Below, one piece after another: positions 12,296-40,755 of a stretch of DNA of 48,857 bases; within the stretch, counting starts at the first letter, position 1, and each line of letters begins with the position of its first letter. Source of the DNA: a virus. A model generated the notes under the pieces. It saw only the letters and a list, made by a program, of their open reading frames with translations, was not told the origin of the DNA and made no database searches. Both the position numbers and the translations under genes were made by a program. Location: the UHGV virus genome UHGV-0138835; one strand, given 5' to 3'.

Positions 12296-13438
12296 TTACA
12301 AAATGGAATATTCAGGGTAATAAACAAAGCGCCCTATCTCACCATGATCCGGGCTGTAAATAATAACCGCCGCCAGGCGACGCGACCGCCATCCGCCATT
12401 AGTAGAATAAGCATCCTTACCGGCTAACGTGCCGTGATACTCAACAACGCCCAACGATGATTCAATCATCCGTTGATGATGCCAGTGCCCGCAGTGGGCG
12501 TAAACCGCCGCAGACTTCCCGAAATCATCGCGCCAGTCAGACACGCAAGCAGCCAATAAATTTTCCGGTTTTTTGATAGTGTGCCCGTGGTGGTAAGCAA
12601 GGAATGTTTTTCCGTACTGTGTGTGGTGGACGATGGCAGGGGACACATCAACCGTCACGCGCGGTTCATCTTCGTAAAAAGCCGCCAGCGACGCACGTAG
12701 CCATATCATTCCTGACTGGTCGTGATTGCCGGATAACACCTGTATTTCAACATCCTTATGATTTAATAACATCTTCCCTACCGCCCGCCGGACCGACCGG
12801 ATCGCTACATAAACAAGTTTTGCGTAGCGTGAATCGCAATCAAGTACGTGATTGCTTGATGGCGTAACTGGCAACAGACCGTCTGTGTGAAGAATATCCC
12901 CACCGAGAAGCAATACAGCTTTTTCAGACATCGGCGCAGCGCCTACAGCGTAGTCAAAGAAGTCATTCAACACGCGCTCAGCAATCCCAGTGTCGTAGCT
13001 CTCGCCGCATTCAGCTTTATGAGCAAGCGCCCCGATATGCAGATCAAATACCGGATAAAGGGCAAGGCTTTTTTGAAAATCAATTTCAGGCACTGGCACG
13101 GCCTCCGCGCGTGGTATTTCTTCCGTGAATGCGTCGCGGGCAGCTTCCATTACCTTTTCCATTTCATCGCGGTCACGGGCTGTTTTAATCCAGCGCATGA
13201 CTGTCTTCCCGTCTTTATCGACAAGAACAGATTCACCAGTAACGCCAAAACCCGGTGCGCGGCGCGTTGATAACAAACCGCGTTTCGCCAGCTTTGCGCC
13301 CAGACGCTCGACGTTGCGTTTTGACATGCAATATTTTTCAGCGATCTGTTTATACGTAAGACCGTTGTTATATTCAGCGATCAATTGCTCATCGCTGATT
13401 TTTCTTTGCGACATAATGTTAATTCCTCCAGTTAACAA
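12296..13438 (-). CDS. HTH domain fused to calcineurin-like metallophosphoesterase
   Basis: N-terminal HTH (LTYKQIAEKYCMSKRNVERL); phosphoesterase motifs DLH, GGDILHTDG, SGNHDQ, HHGH, GHWHH; start may be the internal ATG at 13414. Confidence 0.6.
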   Translation of the reverse strand: MLTGGINIMSQRKISDEQLIAEYNNGLTYKQIAEKYCMSKRNVERLGAKLAKRGLLSTRRAPGFGVTGESVLVDKDGKTVMRWIKTARDRDEMEKVMEAARDAFTEEIPRAEAVPVPEIDFQKSLALYPVFDLHIGALAHKAECGESYDTGIAERVLNDFFDYAVGAAPMSEKAVLLLGGDILHTDGLLPVTPSSNHVLDCDSRYAKLVYVAIRSVRRAVGKMLLNHKDVEIQVLSGNHDQSGMIWLRASLAAFYEDEPRVTVDVSPAIVHHTQYGKTFLAYHHGHTIKKPENLLAACVSDWRDDFGKSAAVYAHCGHWHHQRMIESSLGVVEYHGTLAGKDAYSTNGGWRSRRLAAVIIYSPDHGEIGRFVYYPEYSIL

Positions 13439-23103: not shown

Positions 23104-23587
23104 CAGGTTACTGGCCTGCGTTTATGTCGCCGTTTTCGTAATCATCAACCTAATTGTTAACCATTGCGGCCCGTGGGTAATTCCGATCACCACGGTAGCC
23201 GCTGTGTGTGTCAATATGATGATCCGTGACTTCCTGTTATATGACGGCGGCCTGAAATGGTCGGCTACAACATGCGCCGCCGCTGGCGCAATCACGGTGC
23301 TGATAAATTACGATGCTGGAATGGTGGCGATTGCGTCATTCGTTGCGGTTGTTTCCGGTGCGCTTATTTCTGGCGGCGTTTACCGGGTTTTACCTGGTGA
23401 TTTCGATTCGAAACGATGGCCTGCAAATATAGCTTCAGCCATCGGTGATGCGTTGATTTTCCCTACGCTATCGTTCATGGCATTTATGCCTGAAATATCA
23501 GCTATGCAGTTCATCTCAAAAATGGCAGCGGTAACGGTGATCACTATCATCATGCGCCGCTATTTCACGTTTGAGGGAAGAAAATGA
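23084..23587 (+). CDS. integral membrane protein (~167 aa, multiple TM helices); very tentatively VUT/YhhQ-like
   Basis: Strongly hydrophobic; weak resemblance to recalled YhhQ segment (AS..G[DN]…F…F.AF); start at ATG 23084. Confidence 0.4.
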   Translation: MKKVTIDRLLACVYVAVFVIINLIVNHCGPWVIPITTVAAVCVNMMIRDFLLYDGGLKWSATTCAAAGAITVLINYDAGMVAIASFVAVVSGALISGGVYRVLPGDFDSKRWPANIASAIGDALIFPTLSFMAFMPEISAMQFISKMAAVTVITIIMRRYFTFEGRK

Positions 23588-24111
23588 ATTGGGAAGATTA
23601 TTTTATATACAATCCAGACACGGGTAAATTGTACTGGAAATGTAGAAATGATATAGATGAATCAAGGCGTAAACAATGGAATGCGTGCAACGCTGGTCAT
23701 GAAGTTGGATATATTGGCGGTAGCGGTGGTTATCTTAACACAGCGCTTACCGTAGGCGGGAAGCGTTATAATTTAAAAGTTCACAGAATATGTTATGAGA
23801 TGTACTATGGCCCAATACCTGAAGGTAAGGAGGTTGATCATATAAATCACATTAAAACAGACAATCGAGCCGTCAATCTTGAATTAAAAGACCATAAAGA
23901 TAATATGCGCAATATGTCTTTGATGGTAAACAATACCAGTGGATGCGCTGGTATCCATAAAAATAAACATGGTAAATGGGTTGTTAGAATAGGCGGAGGC
24001 AAAAGAGGCGAGAGGGTTTATATAGGGTGTTTTTCTGATATTAATGACGCAATAAAAGCACGACGCGACGCTGAAAAAGAGTATGGCTATCATGAAAACC
24101 ACGGCAAATAG
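23584..24111 (+). CDS. HNH homing endonuclease with AP2-like DNA-binding domain
   Basis: HNH core HRICYEMYYGPIPEGKEVDHINHIKTDNRAVNLE and AP2-like GIHKNKHGKWVVRIGG…YIGCFSDINDAIKARRDAE. Confidence 0.8.
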   Translation: MNWEDYFIYNPDTGKLYWKCRNDIDESRRKQWNACNAGHEVGYIGGSGGYLNTALTVGGKRYNLKVHRICYEMYYGPIPEGKEVDHINHIKTDNRAVNLELKDHKDNMRNMSLMVNNTSGCAGIHKNKHGKWVVRIGGGKRGERVYIGCFSDINDAIKARRDAEKEYGYHENHGK

Positions 24112-24370
24112 AACAACCCGCCAGCCGCCGCGCGGCTTTGCCAGTGCTGTATTCCTTGCTAACGACCGGGCCATCACGCGTACTACGCTCAACCGCGTTT
24201 TACCGGACTAAAGTTTACAAAATGGCGTCATTGCGTGATGTGGATCACATAATGGCGATTTTCACCTTGTTCTGACGTATCCATTTTGTATACTTCAAAC
24301 AAGAAAAATGCTCTTTAAAAATCCGGTAGCGCTGAAATGCGTAGAAATCACCTGAAAAGGAGAGAGCATT

Positions 24371-24547
24371 ATGCCTTTTGATAATTACCAATGGCATGAC
24401 GACTATGAACGAGAGAGCGTCATGCGTGCAATGTGCAATGTATGCAGCACGAAGAAAGGAGGCTGTAACGAGTGCAACGAATGCTTAGAACATTGGCTAA
24501 GGGCCGGACACGCCGAAAGGCTGAACGAAACAGAGAATCAAAAATAA
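24371..24547 (+). CDS. small Cys-rich (zinc-ribbon-like) protein, 58 aa
   Basis: Strong SD AAAGGAGAG 7 nt upstream; CNVCSTKKGGCNECNEC; below ORF-track cutoff. Confidence 0.35.
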   Translation: MPFDNYQWHDDYERESVMRAMCNVCSTKKGGCNECNECLEHWLRAGHAERLNETENQK

Positions 24548-24561
24548 TCGGGGTGGTTTTT

Positions 24562-25167
24562 ATGCAAAACCCTAAAAAACCCATAAGACGCCGTTGCAAA
24601 TGCTGCGGCGTTTTTTTTGAACCTAAATATCACAATCAAACGTGGTGCAGCGATGAATGTCTGGAAGAACTGAAGTTTGATCAGCTATGCCGCGAACGTG
24701 AAAAGGCTATGAAGGCTATGGAGCGGAAGAAACGCCGTGACAGCCAGCGTGAGGAACGCAACAGGAAGCGGAAACAGTTAAATCCGCGCAGCTACTGGAT
24801 TAAACAGGCGCAGGCCGTATTTAATGCCTATATCCGCGAACGTGACGCGCTATTGCCGTGCATATCCTGCGGGACTTATTACGGTGAGCAATGTTCATGG
24901 GATGCGGGACATTACAGGACGGTAGCCGCTGCCGGACACCTTCGCTTTAACGAGGATAATTGCCACAAACAATGCAGGCACTGCAACCAGACATTAGACG
25001 GCAACATCGGAGGGTATCGCCCAGCACTGATTCGAAAAATTGGCCTCGCCAGGGTGGTGGCGCTGGAGAACAACAACGAAACTCACAAATGGACGATAGA
25101 AGAATGTAAGGAAATCATAAAAGTCTATCAGGCGAAATTAGACGCCTTAAGGAGAAAGGCAGCATGA
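24562..25167 (+). CDS. ninG: NinG (Rap) recombination protein
   Basis: Strong match to recalled lambda NinG (RRRCK…C…PRSYWIKQAQ…N.FIRERD..LPCISCGT….WDAGHYRT.AAA..LRFNE.N.HKQC..CNQ…GN…YR..LI.RIG……E.N…H.WTIEECK.I). Confidence 0.85.
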   Translation: MQNPKKPIRRRCKCCGVFFEPKYHNQTWCSDECLEELKFDQLCREREKAMKAMERKKRRDSQREERNRKRKQLNPRSYWIKQAQAVFNAYIRERDALLPCISCGTYYGEQCSWDAGHYRTVAAAGHLRFNEDNCHKQCRHCNQTLDGNIGGYRPALIRKIGLARVVALENNNETHKWTIEECKEIIKVYQAKLDALRRKAA

Positions 25168-25571
25168 ATGAATATTCTTTTAGCCTGCCTTACCCGCCAT
25201 CGAATAATCGCTATTACCGACATTCACGCGGTTTTCACTATATCAGCAAAGTGGGGAAGGAATACAGGGAACAAGTAAGAGACATCATCGAGCTATTAAA
25301 TTTAAACATCAACCTATCTTGCCGACTGGCAATTACCATTCATGCCGCGCCGCCGGATAACCGAACCAGAGATCTGGATAATATCCCTAAATGCCTTTTT
25401 GATAGTCTTACTTATGCAGAGTTCTGGAAGGATGACGGACAAATCGACGCAATAAAAATTGTTCGCTGCCGGAAGGTAAAAGGCGGACGCTTGTTTATTA
25501 AGGTACGCGAACGCGGCGACCTGTTACCGGATATTGGTGAATACGAAACTAATATGTGGGGTGAGCAATGA
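25164..25571 (+). CDS. rusA: RusA Holliday-junction resolvase
   Basis: Match to recalled RusA (YSF.LPYPPSNNRYYRH.RG…RDLDN..K…D.LT.A.FW.DD.Q…….KGGRL). Confidence 0.85.
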   Translation: MNEYSFSLPYPPSNNRYYRHSRGFHYISKVGKEYREQVRDIIELLNLNINLSCRLAITIHAAPPDNRTRDLDNIPKCLFDSLTYAEFWKDDGQIDAIKIVRCRKVKGGRLFIKVRERGDLLPDIGEYETNMWGEQ

Positions 25572-25750
25572 AAAACGAAGTTAAAGATCTGCAAATAGAT
25601 ATTCAGCGCGATGAGCATGATTTAGCTACAGTCCGACAAATACAGGCTTTTCACATGAGAGAACTGCTTGCGCTGAAAGAGCTTGAAAGAAAGTTGGTCC
25701 AGTCAATATCTGATCGCAAAAGACTGGTTGCGCGTTACAGGGGAAAATAA
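25568..25750 (+). CDS. hypothetical protein (60 aa)
   Basis: ORF translationally coupled between rusA and Q. Confidence 0.3.
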   Translation: MKNEVKDLQIDIQRDEHDLATVRQIQAFHMRELLALKELERKLVQSISDRKRLVARYRGK

Positions 25751-26472
25751 TGAATCTGGAATCAATTCTTAAATTCCACTTCCCAAAATCACCGCGTTTG
25801 TCAGATGAAAGCCGGGGCACGTCCCCGGATGCGCTTAATACCACGGACGCACTAACTGCCGCAGGTATGGCGCAATCGCGCGTAGAGCTTGGTTATAGCG
25901 CTTTTTTGGGGAAGATGGAACTATCACAAGCCGAAAAACATAAGGCCGTAGTTTTGCTTACAGAGCGTTTAAGGGCTATGGCAAAAGATTATGAATACGT
26001 CATGGAACTGGACGAGGCCAAACGCAATGATCTCATTATTCTTGTTGCCGTTTTCGCGTTTCGGGATTATTGCCAGAGTGCAGCGACCGAAAAAGTTTGC
26101 CCGGAATGCGGCGGATATAAATTTACGTTTGACGAATACGGAGAAAAACACCTTTGCAAAAAATGCAAGGGGCATGGGAAAGTTCTTAATCATTGTAAAC
26201 AATGCAAGGGCCGTGGCGAAGTGCCGGATAAAGCAGCCAGCGAAGCGGCGGAAATGCCAGTATTCAAAACGTGTCAGCATTGCGGCGGGCGCGGGTACTC
26301 GCGTTTCCCTGTAGATCTCGTTCGGCAGGCTGTCAATCAGCTTGTCTTTCCGGTAAGCCGATCAACATGGTGGAAGAAATACCGCGCTTTCTATGAAGAC
26401 GCCATTGCTGAATTGTTCAAAGAAGAGGTGCGGGCAGATAACGAAATTAAACGAGTTACGCGGGGTGAATGA
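25750..26472 (+). CDS. Q: late-gene antitermination protein Q (lambda Q family)
   Basis: N-terminus MNLESILKFHFPKSPRLSD closely parallels recalled lambda Q (MRLESVAKFHSPKSPMMSD); Cys-rich zinc-binding region. Confidence 0.8.
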   Translation: MNLESILKFHFPKSPRLSDESRGTSPDALNTTDALTAAGMAQSRVELGYSAFLGKMELSQAEKHKAVVLLTERLRAMAKDYEYVMELDEAKRNDLIILVAVFAFRDYCQSAATEKVCPECGGYKFTFDEYGEKHLCKKCKGHGKVLNHCKQCKGRGEVPDKAASEAAEMPVFKTCQHCGGRGYSRFPVDLVRQAVNQLVFPVSRSTWWKKYRAFYEDAIAELFKEEVRADNEIKRVTRGE

Positions 26473-26672
26473 TGGATAAGCTGGAAATAAACGATCAGTT
26501 TGCTGTTATCTTGTTCGAAGATAAAACAGGCGGTGCATGGTGTAAGAAGGTCACTGGTGCGGAAGCGCGATTAATATTGGGTATGGCAAGCGCGTTAAAC
26601 GAAGGCGAATTGCCAGCCGTACCAATTGAGCCAGTTCATATTTACGGACGGAGCAAAGACAATGAAGCCTAA
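26469..26672 (+). CDS. hypothetical protein (67 aa)
   Basis: ORF overlapping Q stop (ATGA). Confidence 0.3.
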   Translation: MMDKLEINDQFAVILFEDKTGGAWCKKVTGAEARLILGMASALNEGELPAVPIEPVHIYGRSKDNEA

Positions 26673-26931
26673 ATTAAAGGAACATCTATTTGCAAAGCTG
26701 GTCAATGACCTGACGTTATCAGCGCGGTTATGTCGTGATACGCAACAATTGAGGGCGTGGATAGCAAGAGATTTAAAAAAATATATTGAGCCTGGCGGGC
26801 CAGGTGGCGAAATCACAATGGACGAGGCCATTAAACGCCGTTCGGCTGAATGGTCAGTTAGTAACACTGGTTTAACCGGATACATTGAAGGCTATAACGA
26901 CTGTTTACAGGATCATAGCGATGGCAAGTAA
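26662..26931 (+). CDS. hypothetical protein (~89 aa)
   Basis: ORF; start at internal ATG 26662. Confidence 0.3.
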   Translation: MKPKLKEHLFAKLVNDLTLSARLCRDTQQLRAWIARDLKKYIEPGGPGGEITMDEAIKRRSAEWSVSNTGLTGYIEGYNDCLQDHSDGK

Positions 26932-27220
26932 AGACCTACATTTGAACCTGAAAGGGGAATATTTCCACGCCATATTGACCGGAAAGAAGGTGGAGGAATA
27001 CCGGCTTTATAATGACTATTGGCGTAAACGTCTGGAAGGGCGGGAATATGAGCGCCTGATTATTAAATGGGGATACCCTGCCAACCACGAAAAACACAGG
27101 ATTATTAACCTTCCTTATTTTGGGTACGAAGTAAAAACTATCACACATCCATTATTCGGCCCTGATCCTGTTAAGGTATTCGCAATTAAATGTAACAGAA
27201 ATTGGATGTTGAGAGGTTAG
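26921..27220 (+). CDS. ASCH (PUA-like) domain protein
   Basis: GxKxxExR signature (TGKKVEEYR) in a ~100-aa protein. Confidence 0.45.
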   Translation: MASKDLHLNLKGEYFHAILTGKKVEEYRLYNDYWRKRLEGREYERLIIKWGYPANHEKHRIINLPYFGYEVKTITHPLFGPDPVKVFAIKCNRNWMLRG

Positions 27221-27435
27221 AAATGAAAAGTAACCGTAAACGCCTTGTAAGGGCATACGATAAAGCATTAAAGGCTTTTGATGATCTGCGACGCAATAAG
27301 CGCCAGCGCCGAAAATGGGCGCGTATGCTTGTAAGGGAGTGGCATAGCGAGGACTATTTCCTTGATGCCAGGCACATGACGCAGGATGTAGCGGACGCAT
27401 TAGCTGATGAGAACGTTTATTATATGATGTGGTGA
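27202..27435 (+). CDS. hypothetical basic protein (77 aa)
   Basis: ORF in operon. Confidence 0.3.
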   Translation: MDVERLEMKSNRKRLVRAYDKALKAFDDLRRNKRQRRKWARMLVREWHSEDYFLDARHMTQDVADALADENVYYMMW

Positions 27436-27439
27436 TAAT

Positions 27440-27805
27440 ATGCAAATAATCATTGATTATCTTTGCCATGCTGCAAATACAGTTTTTGGCATGTATCAAC
27501 AACCATTCCTGAAGGAATGGGATGATATGCTAAACGACATCCTCGACAAAGGATTAATAATGGAGGTTGACGAGCTTACAATCAAATTTAATTATGATGG
27601 TGAAATTTATCTAATTTGGGTCGGGAATAGATGGTATTCATACGGTCATATTTATTCAATTGGTGGTAAGTTCATTAAAAGAAACCAGGAGTTCAGACCG
27701 CGCTTCCGCACAATGCGCCGCCTGCATGATCTGCATATGAAGTTATTCGAAGATCAGGAAGCACGGGAATTATTCAAAATTTACGGGGATAAATCATGGA
27801 GCTAA
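27440..27805 (+). CDS. hypothetical protein (121 aa)
   Basis: ORF in operon. Confidence 0.35.
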   Translation: MQIIIDYLCHAANTVFGMYQQPFLKEWDDMLNDILDKGLIMEVDELTIKFNYDGEIYLIWVGNRWYSYGHIYSIGGKFIKRNQEFRPRFRTMRRLHDLHMKLFEDQEARELFKIYGDKSWS

Positions 27806-28026
27806 AAATCTGGCAGGCTATCGACGTAGTTGATAATGAATTGTCTATGTTCGCCACTAACGGGAAACGCGTTGTGATCGCTACATGGACACGTAACCAT
27901 GATGATATTGCTTTTCGTCGCGCTGCGGCGGAATTGCTTTTCTCTGATGGCGGCTACACGATGAATATCGCACAGCTTGCCAGAATGAAAGATGAAATAC
28001 TGGTGGACAGCTACACAACTGCATAA
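27796..28026 (+). CDS. hypothetical protein (76 aa)
   Basis: ORF in operon. Confidence 0.3.
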   Translation: MELKIWQAIDVVDNELSMFATNGKRVVIATWTRNHDDIAFRRAAAELLFSDGGYTMNIAQLARMKDEILVDSYTTA

Positions 28027-28036
28027 CGGGGTGAAT

Positions 28037-28270
28037 ATGCGTATCTATGAGCACAAGCGGGATAAAACCCGCTTTTTTGTTCGTGCTGGCGTGGCGTACT
28101 GGTATCACGAATGCGGATACATTGAGGCGCTTGCTTACGACCTTGATTTTGAGCAGGAAAAGGAATGGTTCGATTTTAAAATTTACCGGAAGCGCAAACC
28201 AACTCGCGACGAGCGACACGCTATCCGTGACTTTTTAATCAGTATTGAGCGCTGGGGGACAGAAGAGTGA
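28037..28270 (+). CDS. hypothetical protein (~77 aa)
   Basis: ORF; start at ATG 28037 with GGGGTGA SD. Confidence 0.3.
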   Translation: MRIYEHKRDKTRFFVRAGVAYWYHECGYIEALAYDLDFEQEKEWFDFKIYRKRKPTRDERHAIRDFLISIERWGTEE

Positions 28271-28494
28271 AAGTAAAATTCTTGCACGATCACGGTTATC
28301 CGTCGCTGAAACAGGTTGTTGGTAAGGTTGTTAACGTAGTTCATAGCGATGATGTTACTTGCATGATTAACGGTGCTGACCTAATTGCCGCTGGCGCTGA
28401 TGATCATTACATAAATCCGGCATGGTCGTATACGTTCAGCCTGAGTGACTTCGTTGGCGACAAGGGGCGCGGGCTGGAAGTAGTCGAGGGTTAA
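28267..28494 (+). CDS. hypothetical protein (75 aa)
   Basis: ORF in operon. Confidence 0.3.
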   Translation: MKVKFLHDHGYPSLKQVVGKVVNVVHSDDVTCMINGADLIAAGADDHYINPAWSYTFSLSDFVGDKGRGLEVVEG

Positions 28495-28498
28495 TATC

Positions 28499-28741
28499 AT
28501 GGACGTTTACGAAGATCTATACCTTCAGACGAATACCCACACTTTTTATTTTCTGAAAAACGGCGTCGTATATCGCAGTGACGACGGGGTAATAATGAAA
28601 GAATGGTTATTTAAGCGTAAAGACCTACTCGACGATCTGGTTTTTGCCGGGATATTTCGTAAACGTCCGGCTAACCTGGAAGAAGAAATGTTGATAGAGG
28701 TATATCAAAATGAAAATCAGGGTAAGTTATTTCCGGGCTAA
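28499..28741 (+). CDS. hypothetical protein (80 aa)
   Basis: ORF in operon. Confidence 0.3.
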   Translation: MDVYEDLYLQTNTHTFYFLKNGVVYRSDDGVIMKEWLFKRKDLLDDLVFAGIFRKRPANLEEEMLIEVYQNENQGKLFPG

Positions 28742-28763
28742 AGATAAGGCAACAGGAAAGCAG

Positions 28764-28961
28764 ATGGCGATCCTGGTTAACGAGGCCAATTATATGTTTG
28801 TACTTCAGCCGTGGTGCATAGCTGACTATAACGATGATTATCGTCGTCACGGTGCGCGGGGTGCTGTAGGCATGAAAGGATGGCAACCGCGCGACATGGA
28901 AAACTATTGTGAATGGAAATTGATAGCAAAATATACGGTCGATTATAAAGGGGTTTTCTGA
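28764..28961 (+). CDS. hypothetical protein (~65 aa)
   Basis: ORF; start at ATG 28764 with AGGAAA SD. Confidence 0.3.
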   Translation: MAILVNEANYMFVLQPWCIADYNDDYRRHGARGAVGMKGWQPRDMENYCEWKLIAKYTVDYKGVF

Positions 28962-28979
28962 TAGTGGTGAGGTGGTGTT

Positions 28980-29186
28980 ATGCAGGTTAAATGTGTCGAA
29001 TCAAATAGCGGCGTTTTTGTAGTCGATAAGATTTATCACGTCTATCAGGTTTTGGGCGTTGACTGCGATGAAAGAGATCAAGTGTTAATTGATGAAGATG
29101 GCGACCCGTGGAAATTCCTATATCGCTACGCCAGCGGCGGCGATGTTATTGGTATTCGCCTTCGTGCAAAATTTGAACTATGTTAA
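28980..29186 (+). CDS. hypothetical protein (68 aa)
   Basis: ORF in operon. Confidence 0.3.
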   Translation: MQVKCVESNSGVFVVDKIYHVYQVLGVDCDERDQVLIDEDGDPWKFLYRYASGGDVIGIRLRAKFELC

Positions 29187-29195
29187 GGTTTAATC

Positions 29196-29495
29196 ATGAA
29201 AAGCGATAAATTCATTGCGTGCTGTTTTGTTGAAGTGCCTAAAGGTGATGTTTTCTGCAATTATGAATTTAAAGACAGTTTAGGCCGATCTCATGTTGTA
29301 GTTGGTAAGCGCGGAGACTGGTTATACATCACTGATGGTGACAGGATCTTCACCAAAAACCAGTTATTAAGAATAAAGGCAGAAAATAATGAAATACCTG
29401 TTGGCAATATGGGGATTATGAACTACCACGCTGGTTTATCGTTAAAACACGATGCGGTGAATAAAGCGCGTAGCTTGCCTGGTGCTGAATTTTAA
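29196..29495 (+). CDS. hypothetical protein (99 aa)
   Basis: ORF in operon. Confidence 0.3.
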   Translation: MKSDKFIACCFVEVPKGDVFCNYEFKDSLGRSHVVVGKRGDWLYITDGDRIFTKNQLLRIKAENNEIPVGNMGIMNYHAGLSLKHDAVNKARSLPGAEF

Positions 29496-29518
29496 TTTCT
29501 TACGAAGGAGAATAACAA

Positions 29519-29842
29519 ATGTCTAAATTTATCAGCGTTAAGGTTTTCCGTGGCACTTTTCCAGAAGATGAGAAAAATGGACAATTCGCAGGACAGCCTG
29601 GCGCATGTTTCCGTGTAGCCACTGATGACGAAGCTAACGTCAAGTGCTTCCATGTATCTGAACCTCCTTTTGACGTGAAACATCTTGACGATGCAAATCA
29701 CGTTAAACATTTTGTTTTCGCATCTGTGGTGCTAAATCCTTGCCCTGATGCTGAAGTGGAATTACTTGGGGCTGAACTGGTTGCGGAATATAAAATGACT
29801 GAAGGAGAAGAGGGGGGAATTGAAATTGAGCGCATCAAATAA
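29519..29842 (+). CDS. hypothetical protein (107 aa)
   Basis: ORF with SD AAGGAG upstream. Confidence 0.35.
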   Translation: MSKFISVKVFRGTFPEDEKNGQFAGQPGACFRVATDDEANVKCFHVSEPPFDVKHLDDANHVKHFVFASVVLNPCPDAEVELLGAELVAEYKMTEGEEGGIEIERIK

Positions 29843-30077
29843 GCTGTATAAAGTCAGGTGTAAAGGAGAATACCCAGGCTTTACGATTGGTTGCGAATAC
29901 CTGGGCCACATTGGGTACGGACCTTTCGGTGAGTTGGGGATGAATACAATGGACGACGACGGCGACAGCCGGACGCTTGATCTTGATTCTGATGATTTCG
30001 AATACATCCCGCCAGTAACTTACCGTGCCGTTGATGATTTCCTGGCTGAACATGAAGACGAGGACGATGATGATTGA
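29820..30077 (+). CDS. hypothetical acidic protein (85 aa, C-terminal EDEDDDD)
   Basis: ORF in operon. Confidence 0.3.
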   Translation: MKLSASNKLYKVRCKGEYPGFTIGCEYLGHIGYGPFGELGMNTMDDDGDSRTLDLDSDDFEYIPPVTYRAVDDFLAEHEDEDDDD

Positions 30078-30264
30078 ATGCCTTATTGCTGTTATTGTTT
30101 TGCTTTATATCGCTGGCGCGATCCTGATGTCATGTTTTATTAAGTATAGCGGCGCTGAACCTGGTGGCCTCGAGATTCCTTTATGGCCTGCAGTGATGTT
30201 TCTCGCTTTCTTCGATGCTACGGTGGAGCAAATCAGGCGAGCTATTAAGGAGCGCAAGAAATGA
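30067..30264 (+). CDS. small membrane protein (~65 aa)
   Basis: Hydrophobic helix IECLIAVIVLLYIAGAILM; start at ATG 30067. Confidence 0.3.
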   Translation: MMIECLIAVIVLLYIAGAILMSCFIKYSGAEPGGLEIPLWPAVMFLAFFDATVEQIRRAIKERKK

Positions 30265-30443
30265 TCGAAGATGGTGTATACGCCGCAACAGTAGTAGACG
30301 GGTTGTTTTACCGCGTAGAAGGTGATGATATTCGCATTCGCGTTGGCGGTGGTGAGTGGGTATCGCCAATCATTAAGACGACACGAGAAACAATTAAAAT
30401 ATTTCTTGATGCTGGTGAACTGGCGAGGGTTAGCGACCTATGA
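30261..30443 (+). CDS. hypothetical protein (60 aa)
   Basis: ORF in operon. Confidence 0.3.
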   Translation: MIEDGVYAATVVDGLFYRVEGDDIRIRVGGGEWVSPIIKTTRETIKIFLDAGELARVSDL

Positions 30444-30616
30444 ACGAGATCGAAGATGGTATCTATTTGCACATGTTATTTAGCATCGCCTATTTGGTTA
30501 AAGGTGATAAGGTAATGACACAAAGCGCGGGCAATAAATATTGGGAATCAAGCGGCATGGATCGCGAACATATGCAAACATTGCTTGATAATGGCCTGAT
30601 ATACAGAAAGCAGTAA
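30440..30616 (+). CDS. hypothetical protein (58 aa)
   Basis: ATGA overlap with upstream gene; below ORF-track cutoff. Confidence 0.25.
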   Translation: MNEIEDGIYLHMLFSIAYLVKGDKVMTQSAGNKYWESSGMDREHMQTLLDNGLIYRKQ

Positions 30617-30624
30617 ATCCGTAT

Positions 30625-30653
30625 TTGTAGGGCGTAAACAAACAGATTAAAAT
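30625..30653 (+). promoter_or_regulatory. candidate late promoter (pR'-like): -35 TTGTAG, 17-bp spacer, -10 TAAAAT
   Basis: Hexamers read directly; ~30 nt upstream of a terminator hairpin and the lysis cassette. Confidence 0.4.
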
Positions 30654-30681
30654 ATTTCCTAACAATGCGAAATTGTAATTA

Positions 30682-30703
30682 CCCGGCCCAGCGCCGGGTT
30701 TTT
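30682..30703 (+). terminator. rho-independent terminator hairpin just upstream of holin (tR'-like)
   Basis: cccggc-ccagc-gccggg followed by TTTTT; SD GGAGG and holin ATG follow. Confidence 0.5.
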
Positions 30704-30723
30704 GCTTTGTTGGAGGTAAATCT

Positions 30724-30924
30724 ATGTTCGACAGAATACGGGAGGCGTGTGCGTATGTGACTGGTGCAGTAACCGCTTTTTTCGGTGCTATAACCATCAA
30801 TGACGTTGCAGTGTTCGTTGGTATCTTATCAACCATTGGCACATTTGCCGTTAATTATTACTTCAAATCACAGGAGAACAAGCGAGCGCAAGAGGAACAC
30901 GACGCGCGAATGGGGAATAAGTAA
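30724..30924 (+). CDS. holin (pinholin-like, two TM domains)
   Basis: 66 aa, two hydrophobic helices, basic C-terminus, directly upstream of a SAR endolysin as in phage 21. Confidence 0.7.
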
Positions 30925-30925
30925 A

Positions 30926-31417
30926 ATGATTAGCCAATCGCTGAAAAACAAGATTGTTGCGGCGGCGGCTGGTGGGGCGATCGCTATTGCGGCGGTGATG
31001 GTAAAAGATCTTGAGGGTGTGGAGTACAAGGCATACAGAGATGTCATCGGTGTTTACACGATATGTTATGGACACGTCGGGAAAGACATCATGCTTGGTA
31101 AGACTTACACGCAATCAGAATGCGATGCTTTGTTAAATAAAGATCTGCACAAGACCGCAAAAGCGATTGACCCATATATCAAAGTCGAAATATCAGATTT
31201 TACCCGCGCAGCACTTTATTCATTCGCCTATAACGTAGGCGCTACCAATTTCAAAACATCAACCTTATTGAAGCTACTCAATGACGGCAAGAAATCAGAG
31301 GCGTGCGCACAGCTTAAACGCTGGGTATACGCTGGCGGTAAGAAGTGGCAAGGCCTGGTAAACCGCCGCGAGGTTGAATATGCCGTTTGCGAATGGGGTG
31401 AAACATGGACAAGGTGA
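30926..31417 (+). CDS. SAR endolysin (GH24 lysozyme with N-terminal signal-arrest-release domain)
   Basis: Close match to recalled phage 21 R21 (GGAIAIA…LEGV.Y…[28 protein letters not shown]……YSF.YNVGA.NF.TSTLL……W.YAGGK.W.GL..RRE.E). Confidence 0.85.
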
Positions 31418-31875
31418 AGACGTTAATCATCGCCGTTGTTGTTTGCATTATTGCCAGCCTTACAGCCGTAACGTGTTATTACCAGGGTGAGGCAGCAAGG
31501 TTACAGGAAGAAGTCACGGTAACGAAAGGCGCACTGAAAACGGCAAGTAACACTATTCAGCAGATGAAGGAGCGAAACGCCGAACTGTCAAAACTTGATA
31601 AGAGGTATCACGATGAGATTAAAGCTATCAGATCTGACATTGCCGATCTGCGCACTGGCATTGATAACGGCACTATCAGGCTGCGCGTCAACGCAATACC
31701 CGTGCGAGTGTCCGACCCCGCCGGAACCGCCAGCGCCATTGATGGAGCCGCCTGTAGACTCACTCCCGACGCTGAATCGGCTTATCTATCCCTCAGAGAA
31801 CAACTAAAAGAGAAAGATGCGAAGATAACCGCGCTTCATGGCTACATCAAAACGCAGTGCTTACGCAAAGAATAA
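31405..31875 (+). CDS. Rz: Rz i-spanin
   Basis: N-terminal TM helix then coiled-coil periplasmic domain; contains embedded +1-frame Rz1. Confidence 0.75.
31613..31807 (+). CDS. Rz1: Rz1 o-spanin (lipoprotein embedded within Rz)
   Basis: Lipobox ITALSGC, proline-rich mature peptide, ATG 31613 with AGAGG SD, fully inside Rz in another frame. Confidence 0.7.
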   Translation: MRLKLSDLTLPICALALITALSGCASTQYPCECPTPPEPPAPLMEPPVDSLPTLNRLIYPSENN

Positions 31876-32789: not shown

Positions 32790-32858
32790 ATGGTTACTTT
32801 CCTGTTAGGTTTATTTATCGGAATGGCTGCCGCTGTAATATTACTGGTCGGTGAATAA
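32790..32858 (+). CDS. micro-ORF 1 (22 aa) hydrophobic single-helix peptide MVTFLLGLFIGMAAAVILLVGE
   Basis: SD GGGGGTGA 5 nt upstream; read by hand; below ORF-track cutoff. Confidence 0.45.
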   Translation: MVTFLLGLFIGMAAAVILLVGE

Positions 32859-32862
32859 TGTT

Positions 32863-32979
32863 ATGGACGATTATATCATCGCCGGATTAATCGGTATTTC
32901 TGTATTTCTTGTTGGTTCTATCATAGTTGCATTGATAAACGCATATATCAAGCATTGGGTGGGGTTGAAAGATGATTGA
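32863..32979 (+). CDS. micro-ORF 2 (38 aa) MDDYIIAGLIGISVFLVGSIIVALINAYIKHWVGLKDD
   Basis: SD GGTGA 9 nt upstream. Confidence 0.45.
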   Translation: MDDYIIAGLIGISVFLVGSIIVALINAYIKHWVGLKDD

Positions 32980-33046
32980 TCCGCTCATTATCCTTTCTGC
33001 CTGCGTCGCTGTATGGCTGGCGATCATGATATTCATTGAAAGCTGA
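32972..33046 (+). CDS. micro-ORF 3 (24 aa) MIDPLIILSACVAVWLAIMIFIES
   Basis: ATGATTGA overlap with micro-ORF 2; SD GGGTGGGG upstream. Confidence 0.4.
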   Translation: MIDPLIILSACVAVWLAIMIFIES

Positions 33047-33057
33047 AGGTATTCACC

Positions 33058-33132
33058 ATGAATATTTACGATCTAATATGGTGGTCAGTGGTCGCCGTCA
33101 TTATCTATTTCTGGTGGAAGAATGTTGTATAG
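33058..33132 (+). CDS. micro-ORF 4 (24 aa) MNIYDLIWWSVVAVIIYFWWKNVV
   Basis: SD GAAGGT 8 nt upstream. Confidence 0.45.
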   Translation: MNIYDLIWWSVVAVIIYFWWKNVV

Positions 33133-33139
33133 GTGAAGC

Positions 33140-33220
33140 ATGAACGCATACGAAATGCTATTGCTGGTGGCTGTAGTTGTAGTCATTGCTGTTGATTTTT
33201 ATAGAGGGTTTAAAAGATGA
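33140..33220 (+). CDS. micro-ORF 5 (26 aa) MNAYEMLLLVAVVVVIAVDFYRGFKR
   Basis: SD AGGTGA 4 nt upstream. Confidence 0.45.
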   Translation: MNAYEMLLLVAVVVVIAVDFYRGFKR

Positions 33221-33288
33221 GAGAAGCAGACTTCTTTTGCATAATTATAGTGATCGTCATCGTTGCGGTGCTTTTAAGCGTTAACTGA
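33217..33288 (+). CDS. micro-ORF 6 (23 aa) MREADFFCIIIVIVIVAVLLSVN
   Basis: ATGA overlap with micro-ORF 5; SD GAGGG upstream. Confidence 0.4.
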   Translation: MREADFFCIIIVIVIVAVLLSVN

Positions 33289-33305
33289 ATCGCAGGGGGT
33301 TGAAA

Positions 33306-33374
33306 ATGAAATGGCTTGATTTCTTTTTCCTGGTTGTTGCGATTGTTTTTACCATGACCGCGCTGACTCAATAG
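33306..33374 (+). CDS. micro-ORF 7 (22 aa) MKWLDFFFLVVAIVFTMTALTQ
   Basis: SD AGGGGG 7 nt upstream. Confidence 0.45.
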   Translation: MKWLDFFFLVVAIVFTMTALTQ

Positions 33375-33382
33375 GTGAATAT

Positions 33383-33457
33383 ATGGAAACTATCGAAGCC
33401 GTATTATTCGTATGTATCGCGGCGGTTGTTATTGTGGGGTTTATTATCAATGTCTGA
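33383..33457 (+). CDS. micro-ORF 8 (24 aa) METIEAVLFVCIAAVVIVGFIINV
   Basis: SD AGGTGA 5 nt upstream. Confidence 0.45.
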   Translation: METIEAVLFVCIAAVVIVGFIINV

Positions 33458-33518
33458 CGGTGATTTCTTAATCATGGCTATATGCACGTTGTTAGTCGTT
33501 ATCGTTTTCTTCGCATAA
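33450..33518 (+). CDS. micro-ORF 9 (22 aa) MSDGDFLIMAICTLLVVIVFFA
   Basis: ATGTCTGA overlap with micro-ORF 8 (coupled). Confidence 0.35.
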   Translation: MSDGDFLIMAICTLLVVIVFFA

Positions 33519-33527
33519 AGGTAAACA

Positions 33528-33611
33528 ATGAAAGAATTATTCGACTGGTTGGAAGTATTAACATACTGCGCAAGTTTTGTTGCTTGCGTATACATCATCA
33601 ATAAATATTGA
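33528..33611 (+). CDS. micro-ORF 10 (27 aa) MKELFDWLEVLTYCASFVACVYIINKY
   Basis: SD AAGG 7 nt upstream; stop 10 nt before the terminase small subunit start. Confidence 0.45.
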   Translation: MKELFDWLEVLTYCASFVACVYIINKY

Positions 33612-39658: not shown

Positions 39659-40708
39659 ATGTACTTTACTAAAGAAAACCTTGCTACCAACGCCCGTATG
39701 CAGGGCCATTGGAAAGAACTGTGGGCGCAACGCAACATCTTCAACGATCAGCATGACGCCATGATTGCAGCAAACAAGGCGAACATGACCGCTGAAATGA
39801 TTGCCTGTAACGCCGTTGGCGGCTTTGCAAAAGAGTTCTGGAAAGAAATCGACAACCAGATTATCGAACTGAATACCGAAGAAATCGGTATTGAAATCGT
39901 CAACGACCTGATGGGTGTGCAAACCGTACTGCCTATCGGTAAAACGCTGAAAATGTACAGCGTATCCGGCGACATCAACGATGAAGTCGTAATGTCTATG
40001 GATGGTCAGGCGCCTCACGGCTATGATCACACCGAATACGGCAGCGATGGCGACCCGATCCCGATGTTCGCAGCGGGTTACGGTGTTAACTGGCGTTTAG
40101 CTCAGGGCTTAAATACTGTAGGTATTGACCTTGCCCTGGACAGCCAGCGCCTGAAACTGAAAAAATTCAACAAAGCACGCGTTAAATTCTACCTTGAAGG
40201 TAACGAAAACATCGTGGTTGATGGTCATAAAGCTATGGGTATTAAAAAACATAAAAACACCCAGCAACTGACTCTGACCGCTGACCTTACCACTGCAAAA
40301 TTTGACGCACTGATCGACTTCTTCACCGTTGGTGAATTTGGTGTTCTGGCCCGCAATAACTTCGTTGCTAAATATGATGTGATGTGGGTATCACCTGAAA
40401 TCATGGCTAACCTGGCACGTCCGCATATCGTTAACGGTGCTGTCGTTGGCAGTGTACTTAATACGGTTATGCCGTTCGCCCCTGTTGGTGAAATCCGTCA
40501 GACCTTTGCACTGAAAGGCAACGAAATCATTGCTTATCAGCGCCGCCGTGACGTCATCACCCCGCTGATCGGTATGACTACTGGTGTAGTTCCTGTTCCG
40601 CGCATGATGCCTACTGATAACTACAACTTCAAAATCATGTCTGCCGAAGGCTTACAAATCACCTGCGACATGCTGGGCCGTTCCGGTGTCGTTTACGGTC
40701 ACAAATAA
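39659..40708 (+). CDS. major capsid protein
   Basis: 349 aa, strong SD, followed by a strong terminator, position in head module. Confidence 0.6.
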   Translation: MYFTKENLATNARMQGHWKELWAQRNIFNDQHDAMIAANKANMTAEMIACNAVGGFAKEFWKEIDNQIIELNTEEIGIEIVNDLMGVQTVLPIGKTLKMYSVSGDINDEVVMSMDGQAPHGYDHTEYGSDGDPIPMFAAGYGVNWRLAQGLNTVGIDLALDSQRLKLKKFNKARVKFYLEGNENIVVDGHKAMGIKKHKNTQQLTLTADLTTAKFDALIDFFTVGEFGVLARNNFVAKYDVMWVSPEIMANLARPHIVNGAVVGSVLNTVMPFAPVGEIRQTFALKGNEIIAYQRRRDVITPLIGMTTGVVPVPRMMPTDNYNFKIMSAEGLQITCDMLGRSGVVYGHK

Positions 40709-40727
40709 TTTCGTGTTTCCTGTAACT

Positions 40728-40755
40728 CCCCGGCGCGATGCCGGGGATTTTTTTT
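40728..40755 (+). terminator. strong rho-independent terminator after capsid gene
   Basis: ccccggc-gcgat-gccgggg followed by ATTTTTTTT. Confidence 0.7.

Follow-up and report, generated by a model that had tools for sequence, protein, structure and literature searches.

By its sequence, the window analysed here, a stretch of 48,857 nucleotides (nt) of the virus genome UHGV-0138835, is a mEp021-like coliphage of the group termed mEpimmI. The region described below shares 85–92% DNA identity with members of this group, and the relatives matched were mEp021, mEp010, mEp013, mEp044, mEp515, mEp554 and MagusPhagus. mEpimmI phages are temperate, non-lambdoid and Nus-dependent, and their abundance in human faeces has been reported to equal that of lambdoid phages (PMC11893012). 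Their N-like early antitermination has been studied, whereas for the late switch gp37 has been termed 'Q-like' and nothing beyond that has been described (PMC11893012). On the plus strand of the window, the open reading frame (ORF) list and gene order place genes for NinG (24472–25167) and RusA (25164–25571) ahead of a 60-amino-acid ORF, which is followed by the gene for a 240-amino-acid Q antiterminator (25750–26472; PF03589, E = 1.4e-28). About 17 small ORFs, packed closely into an island (26469–30616), and a non-coding gap of 107 nt then lead to the first late gene, which encodes an HP1-family holin (ATG at 30724, end at 30924; PF16080, E = 6.7e-15) and is preceded by a Shine-Dalgarno sequence, GGAGG, at 30712–30716. 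Genes for an endolysin (lysozyme; 30926–31417, PF00959) and an Rz-type spanin (31405–31875, PF03245) complete the lysis region on the same strand, and terminase, packaging and morphogenesis genes lie 3′ of Rz.

Three observations concern the surroundings of this locus. A nutR2-like site at approximately 24311–24345, comprising a boxA, GCTCTTTAA, and then a small hairpin with GAAA in its loop, sits between the ORF at 23584–24111 and a 58-amino-acid ORF at 24371, which is the published position in mEp021. On the other side, the roughly 830-nt 'gap' 5′ of the small terminase gene (32790–33610) holds a string of very small ORFs with hydrophobic, membrane-like peptides, several of which are annotated as tiny hypothetical proteins in MagusPhagus. 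In the mEp044 record (L009, PP180004.1), the holin coding sequence is absent, a 108-nt ORF at 1106–1213 is annotated across the terminator and the lysozyme coding sequence is annotated with an upstream extension; the missing holin is probably an annotation artefact, because its reading frame starts normally in the DNA.

A first-pass annotation of the window had read the 107-nt gap as a candidate pR′/tR′ pair, with a TTGTAG-17-TAAAAT promoter followed about 30 nt later by a GC hairpin, a T-run and the holin Shine-Dalgarno sequence, and all of these elements are present in the window sequence where it had placed them. From 5′ to 3′ on the plus strand, the gap contains a −35-like hexamer, TTGTAG (30625–30630; three of six consensus matches); a conserved spacer core, AAACAAACAGAT, at 30636–30647, which is near-invariant in both classes of −35 sequence described below and is a candidate Q-binding element; and a −10 hexamer, TAAAAT (30648–30653; five of six consensus matches), separated from TTGTAG by 17 nt. 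Seven nucleotides further on, a −10-like hexamer, AACAAT (30661–30666), occupies predicted positions +1 to +6 and is a candidate sigma-dependent pause element, so that the site reads TAAAAT-atttcct-AACAAT-GCG. The start site is predicted at 30660–30662 and a pause would be expected near 30676–30677, as the lambda pause is at +16/+17 (PMC9191641). A hairpin begins 14 nt after AACAAT and forms part of an intrinsic, tR′-like terminator (30681–30711), with the stem ACCCGGC/GCCGGGT and then TTTTTGCTTTGTT.

The terminator is the clearest of these elements. Its hairpin (30681–30699) starts 27 nt after the −10, has seven pairs, six of them G–C, and a 5-nt loop, and is the top terminator-like site in the 24.5–33.5 kb region. 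The 49-nt leader has a predicted folding energy of −18.2 kcal/mol (z = −3.3), and none of 200 shuffles was as good. Both arms of the stem are 100% identical in 11 of 12 aligned relatives, with a single change in the 5′ arm of the remaining one (L007), whereas the loop varies, at 60–100% identity. The counterpart of the hairpin in the mEp021 record is TERM_5, with TERM_1 to TERM_4 arranged in order along the early region, and the hairpin is the only element of the gap annotated in published records. Terminators t1, t2 and t5 of mEp021 are listed as experimentally demonstrated (PMC11893012). We equate t5 with TERM_5 by their matching numbering only. A 2023 paper on mEp021 antitermination presumably includes the test of t5. 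Transcription from the predicted start would yield a terminated RNA of about 44 nt, ending near 30703–30707. A search of the 24–34 kb region against Rfam matched no family and returned only one sub-threshold CRISPR-repeat hit.

The promoter is less conspicuous. Its two hexamers match the consensus at 8 of 12 positions (3/6 plus 5/6), which is below the threshold of our consensus scan, where the site is not listed; promoter-like sites in the region were not in excess in that scan. On a crude position-weight score covering 97,662 positions of both strands, the site comes 23rd, which is good, yet not significant alone. With a weak and often replaced −35, and no extended −10 at the candidate promoter, the site may be weak as a plain sigma-70 promoter. 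Taken by itself, the hexamer match could be due to chance, and the support for a promoter here comes from position and comparison; by sequence statistics alone, only the terminator stands out. The candidate site is the single place in the window with the composite motif of a −10, 5–7 nt, AACNNT and a terminator no more than 110 nt away, and about 10% of dinucleotide shuffles hold at least one such motif.

Two other readings of this short region were rejected. TGTAAT at 30675–30680 could serve as an alternative −10, but its last T is a C in many relatives. Interpretation of the candidate region as a nut site fails in two ways: a boxA resembling GCTCTTTAA is absent, with only TAACAA in the region, and the mini-hairpin ACAAU-GCGAA-AUUGU is broken by uncompensated T-to-C changes in many relatives.

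To compare the site among related phages, we used 15 loci collected by BLAST from phage and Escherichia coli genome collections and 37 loci found by an exact-motif scan of IMG/VR. The search motif comprised 22 specified bases, and the 37 IMG/VR loci are bound to be invariant inside it, a bias that does not affect the BLAST-collected loci or the more distant sister clade described below. An aligned set of 12 comparators, the sister clade among them, was compared with the window as reference. The block at 30636–30672, from the spacer core through the candidate pause element, is 95–100% identical to the window in ten close relatives, and the figure is 81% for one relative with a Q of 76% identity, whereas identity in the −35 region is 25–38% in one class of relatives. 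The conserved block is kept although the ORF upstream of it differs, with at least three unrelated ones found there, and although the holin gene comes in two alleles of about 60% nucleotide identity; the block thus behaves as a module under a selective constraint of its own. Across the whole phage group, no other non-coding block between Q and holin is conserved. When one genome per species was scanned for TAAAAT-N7-AACAATGCGAAA, enterobacteria yielded no hit and unrelated bacteria yielded 49, which we put down to chance; the motif is confined to the mEpimmI phage group. One of the contigs (P0011) stops 5′ of the holin gene.

Within the promoter, conservation is uneven. In the close relatives that were aligned independently of the motif, the −10 TAAAAT never varies, and AACAAT is invariant in the mEpimmI group. 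At the −35 position, 38 of 53 related sites read TTGTNN and the other 15 read TCGCGC or TCGCAC; the relative with the 76%-identical Q carries TCGCGC, exactly 17 nt from the −10. Of the two hexamers of the candidate promoter, the −10 is both present and conserved, whereas TTGTAG is present in the window but gives way to another sequence in the sister clade and in 15 of the 53 relatives. TTGTAG is weak and not conserved, and is the least secure part of the original observation. A recurrent nnGCGC is seen at the −35 position (30620–30635; L002, L004, L007, L011, L116 and L112), and this GCGC might be part of a protein-binding site. The spacer core, AAACAAAYRGAT, is conserved, and its AAACAA is kept at nearly the same position in the sister clade. 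It shows no resemblance to the lambda spacer. By its position and conservation, the core at 30636–30647 is a candidate for the Q-binding element.

A protein search led to a sister clade with Q at 47% identity (P0010), on contigs of approximately 52–53 kb (L112–L115) with the same genome layout, ERF-SSB...Dam-NinG-RusA-Q-island-holin. This clade was found only among Logan contigs, which are read-archive assemblies; a close relative of its Q appeared neither in the phage-record search nor in IMG/VR, where the same search gave six more ordinary Q-lambda-family loci that we used in the layout comparison below. The sister clade has the order Q, about 3 kb of small ORFs, a 111-nt gap and holin, and its gap reads TATAAT-tccctc-AATAAT-(19 nt)-GGCTGGA-attgt-TCCGGCC-TTTATTTTTTT-...GGGAGG-ATG, with the ATG being that of holin. 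Compared with the window, the −10 (TATAAT) matches the consensus and the −10-like repeat (AATAAT) is better at the same spacing, and a different hairpin and T-run occupy the same place. The −35 position, exactly 17 nt from the −10, reads AAGCGC. The composite site is unique in the 18.8-kb locus. The sister clade thus keeps the architecture though the sequence has changed, and in our view no other single finding speaks as strongly for the arrangement being functional. In L112, the predicted outer helix round the terminator pairs 12752–12769 with 12835–12852.

The arrangement also matches that of late promoters served by Q-lambda-family proteins. Our layout set consisted of 15 loci, namely lambda, HK225, SfV, Klebsiella ST16-OXA48phi5.1, SEN34, Erwinia vB_EhrS_59, ES18, SEN22, a Citrobacter prophage and the six IMG/VR loci, and addition of the sister clade brought the comparators to 16. 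All 15 have a −35, 16–17 nt, a −10, a gap of 5–7 nt that is usually pyrimidine-rich, and an AAYNNT hexamer. This hexamer takes the forms AACGAT (lambda), AACAGT, AACACT, AATAGT, AATCAT and AATGAT, with A at position 2, T at position 6 and often GGG next. An intrinsic terminator lies tens of nucleotides downstream in this set, and more than 150 nt downstream in lambda. Providencia PSTCR3 was the only phage without a site of this layout in the DNA stretch read after Q. At the level of sequence, the candidate site does carry a qut-like element: the −10-like AACAAT at predicted +1 to +6 fits the family-wide layout.

The Q protein itself points to the same mechanism. PF03589 is the Q-lambda family, whose members have a torus segment, a zinc-ribbon arm and a helix-turn-helix body, and residues 1–44 of lambda Q form the exit-channel torus for RNA (PMC9388147). 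In this family, the Q-binding site lies inside the late promoter, Q loads onto the sigma-dependent paused polymerase and a terminator lies downstream (PMC9388147, PMC9191641). The window Q is 35% identical to lambda Q over its full length; residues 1–114 align with residues 1–114 of the lambda Q chain 7UBM_Q and are well conserved, and residues 148–238 align with 117–207. The N-terminal segment aligns closely with lambda Q residues 1–44. Judged by its sequence, the window Q is a genuine Q-lambda-family protein, and since it aligns with lambda Q and has a conserved torus segment, the lambda mechanism is to be expected. The arm of lambda Q contacts the Q-binding site and sigma region 4. Relative to lambda Q, the window Q has at the base of this zinc-ribbon 'arm' an extra 33-amino-acid CxxC..CxxC insertion (residues 115–147), with two CxxC pairs, and the family alignment shows similar or larger arm insertions in ES18, HK225, other family members and the sister clade. 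Within the mEpimmI group, the insertion exists as two alleles. The two insertion variants do not covary with the two −35 classes, and this comparison gave no handle on the Q-binding site.

The candidate promoter is nevertheless far from the Q gene, unlike the canonical cassette, which is described with its transcription unit adjoining Q (PMC9388147), and unlike all 15 loci of the layout set, in which the promoter starts within roughly 100 nt of the Q stop. The −35 lies 4,153 nt past the Q stop, with 17 ORFs between, in agreement with the distance of about 4 kb originally noted, and Q is indeed without intergenic space after it, as the next ORF starts at 26469 with an ATGA overlap. In 16 relatives the site lies 1.9–6.7 kb past the Q stop, and the sister clade has it at about 3 kb. 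This separation is a matter of gene order and poses no mechanistic problem, as a protein such as Q can diffuse to the promoter and bind DNA there. The first-pass annotation had left a choice between Q acting at a distance and another late promoter inside the island; our results favour Q acting in trans and give no support to an island promoter, because the island and post-Q ORFs are tightly packed and variable between relatives. From Q to holin, the 107-nt gap is the only non-coding stretch of any size. Outside one motif within an ORF at 26477, no other plus-strand pair of a −10 and AACNNT was found between Q and holin. That motif, TAAGCT-7 nt-AACGAT at 26477–26495, was rejected as the late promoter: it lies inside an ORF, without a −35 and without a nearby terminator, and it is absent where the first ORF differs (mEp021, L017, L022, L032 and L045).

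The island varies in content and in length, from 1.9 to 6.7 kb, among relatives, and 15 of its 17 ORFs in the window match PHROG families of unknown function. It is upstream of the proposed late promoter and therefore should be transcribed together with Q as delayed-early genes, so that it is presumably part of a delayed-early, Q-independent transcript. Placement of this hypervariable small-gene island of 2–7 kb in the early transcript matters for guessing the roles of its genes. Its last two ORFs, 30261–30443 and 30440–30616, are tandem paralogues that both match phrog_15318, of unknown function. A good terminator-like hairpin with a T-run lies inside an island ORF on the plus strand (28055–28084), and the best consensus promoter of the region, TTTGCA-16-TATAAT with 10 of 12 matches, maps to the minus strand where two ORFs meet (27446–27419). 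Downstream, the late region has 12 promoter-like sites against 24.3 ± 4.8 expected, about half, and contains a strong intrinsic terminator on the plus strand at 40727–40747 (nine pairs, seven of them G–C, and T8), just past the ORF at 39659–40708. A promoter-poor late region with an internal terminator fits one long antiterminated operon with an upstream loading site.

Taken together, we consider a pR′/tR′ pair acting as the substrate of a Q-type antiterminator, as first suggested, to be the best-supported explanation, given the fit to the family layout and the presence of the only conserved non-coding block between Q and holin. More specifically, and with a probability of about 0.7, the 107-nt gap would be a compact lambda-type pR′-pause-tR′ cassette served in trans by Q. 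Sigma-70 polymerase would start at about 30660–30662 from the −10 TAAAAT, with a weak −35, and sigma region 2 would re-bind AACAAT at +1 to +6 to give a promoter-proximal pause near +16/+17. Without Q, the polymerase would escape and stop at the hairpin and T-run (30681–30711), releasing the RNA of about 44 nt. Q, whose gene lies 4.2 kb upstream and would be expressed from the early rightward transcript, would bind the promoter spacer, probably at its AAACAA... core, and load onto the paused polymerase, which would then ignore the 30681–30711 terminator and later ones and allow expression of the lysis, packaging and morphogenesis genes. Initiation and pausing at these points, binding by Q and dependence on Q are inferred from the sequence elements and their comparison with the family. 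What is peculiar here is the separation from Q by a variable island throughout the group, the very short leader and the poor −35.

The terminator could instead act without a promoter, with the hairpin ending the delayed-early operon, the late genes being reached by nut-modified polymerase (through the N-like Gp17) and Q loading elsewhere. We think this unlikely, although the hairpin is the strongest and best-supported element and alone is annotated in published records, the −35 is poor or absent, and a nutR2-like boxA/boxB lies upstream, at about 24311–24345 (PMC11893012). Such an arrangement leaves unexplained both the near-invariance of 30636–30672 upstream of the hairpin and the pair of −10 and −10-like elements at family-typical spacing, which recurs in the sister clade with a different sequence. 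More improbable still is that the true Q-dependent late promoter is elsewhere, either right after Q or in the island, and that the holin-proximal site is a secondary terminator. The TAAGCT-7 nt-AACGAT motif does lie in the canonical position after the Q stop, and island sites at 29826, 27554 and 27567 score as well as the candidate by position weight; against this, the 26477 motif is in an ORF, has no −35 or nearby terminator and is missing in several relatives, no island site has a −10 plus AACNNT pair, and the island changes in content over 1.9 to 6.7 kb with ORFs that abut or overlap throughout. We therefore give this possibility very little weight.

A different kind of explanation assigns the conserved block a role in RNA: 30644–30659 would pair with the holin Shine-Dalgarno sequence and spacer (30712–30723) and gate translation, with or without a Q-independent promoter. 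Folding predicts an outer helix round the terminator both for the window (z = −4.4) and for the sister clade, where its sequence differs (z = −4.2). In four lineages, the probability that the Shine-Dalgarno sequence and AUG are unpaired falls from 0.47–0.65 in RNA from the predicted start to 0.07–0.20 in read-through RNA, and 1.5–5% of shuffles reach equally low accessibility. The effect is weak in the window, mEp021, mEp010 and L003 (0.25 versus 0.19, and similar), and changes that occur naturally at 30657 and 30717 disrupt pairs with no compensating change. Furthermore, the pyrimidine-rich stretch from the −10 to the pause is a family trait even where the holin is distant, and complementarity to the Shine-Dalgarno sequence may be incidental. 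We judge that an RNA-level role is quite unlikely to be the explanation of the site; it would be compatible with the pR′-pause-tR′ cassette and does not exclude it.

Two additions to the cassette can be considered in this light. In the members lacking a −35 and in the sister clade, initiation may depend on a phage factor, possibly spacer-bound Q, as opposed to constitutive initiation in lambda. In addition, the modelled folds raise the possibility that the holin may be translated well only from late-promoter transcripts, with RNA of the −10 and discriminator pairing with the Shine-Dalgarno sequence in read-through RNA; if true, this occlusion would guard the cell against premature lysis by early read-through. 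That the late region adds both factor-dependent initiation and occlusion of the holin Shine-Dalgarno sequence on early read-through RNA is, as a joint proposal, unlikely. The cassette itself would supply the missing late-switch element for the mEpimmI coliphages and would leave the understanding of Q-type antitermination unchanged. The lambda-family signature, comprising a −10, a short pyrimidine-rich gap, AAYNNT and a nearby terminator, can be used to locate late promoters that do not adjoin Q.

The candidate cassette can be compared with the pR′-QBE-SDPE-tR′ (6S RNA) region of lambda. Both have a Q of family PF03589, a −10-like element 6–7 nt past the −10 at +1 to +6 (AACGATG in lambda and AACAATG in the window), an intrinsic terminator before the lysis genes and a long late operon after it. 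The lambda promoter is about 55 nt past the Q stop, whereas that of the window is 4.15 kb away behind 17 small ORFs, and lambda has a good −35 (TTGACT) where the window has TTGTAG and many relatives have no match at all. The spacer with the Q-binding sequence in lambda is unrelated to the window spacer. The lambda terminator lies more than 150 nt downstream of the start, and the terminated RNA is about 194 nt long; in the window the hairpin begins at +21 and the predicted RNA is about 44 nt.

A further comparison is with short-leader phages of the ES18, SEN22, HK225 and SfV type. Among annotated phage records, they have the closest Q outside the group, at 33–37% identity, and the Q proteins of ES18, SEN22 and HK225 have extra zinc-ribbon insertions, as in the window. 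The ES18 site, TAATAT-cgtttct-AACAGT with a terminator tens of nucleotides past the start, has the same layout as that of the window. These phages differ in having the promoter within roughly 100 nt of the Q stop and a good −35 (TTTACA, TTTACT or TTGCAT), and the extra genes of SfV are downstream of the terminator, whereas the island of the window is upstream of the promoter.

In Stx phages (PMC7547250), a constitutive late promoter is terminated just downstream to give a short RNA (StxS) in lysogens, with read-through only with Q. The arrangement predicted here is alike, with a late promoter, a terminator just downstream and a short RNA, but the cargo of Stx phages (stx among other genes) follows tR′ and precedes the lysis genes, and is Q-dependent, whereas the island of the window lies between Q and pR′ and is presumably Q-independent. 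For separation from Q, there is a precedent in BaGTA BrrG, a Q21-like antiterminator of Bartonella whose locus is apart from its target promoter, which has a −10-like element and a terminator (bioRxiv 10.1101/2024.11.20.624540). BrrG differs from the window Q in being Q21-like (by structure), in its long leader and in belonging to another host and element type, and it illustrates that a Q protein need not adjoin its own site.
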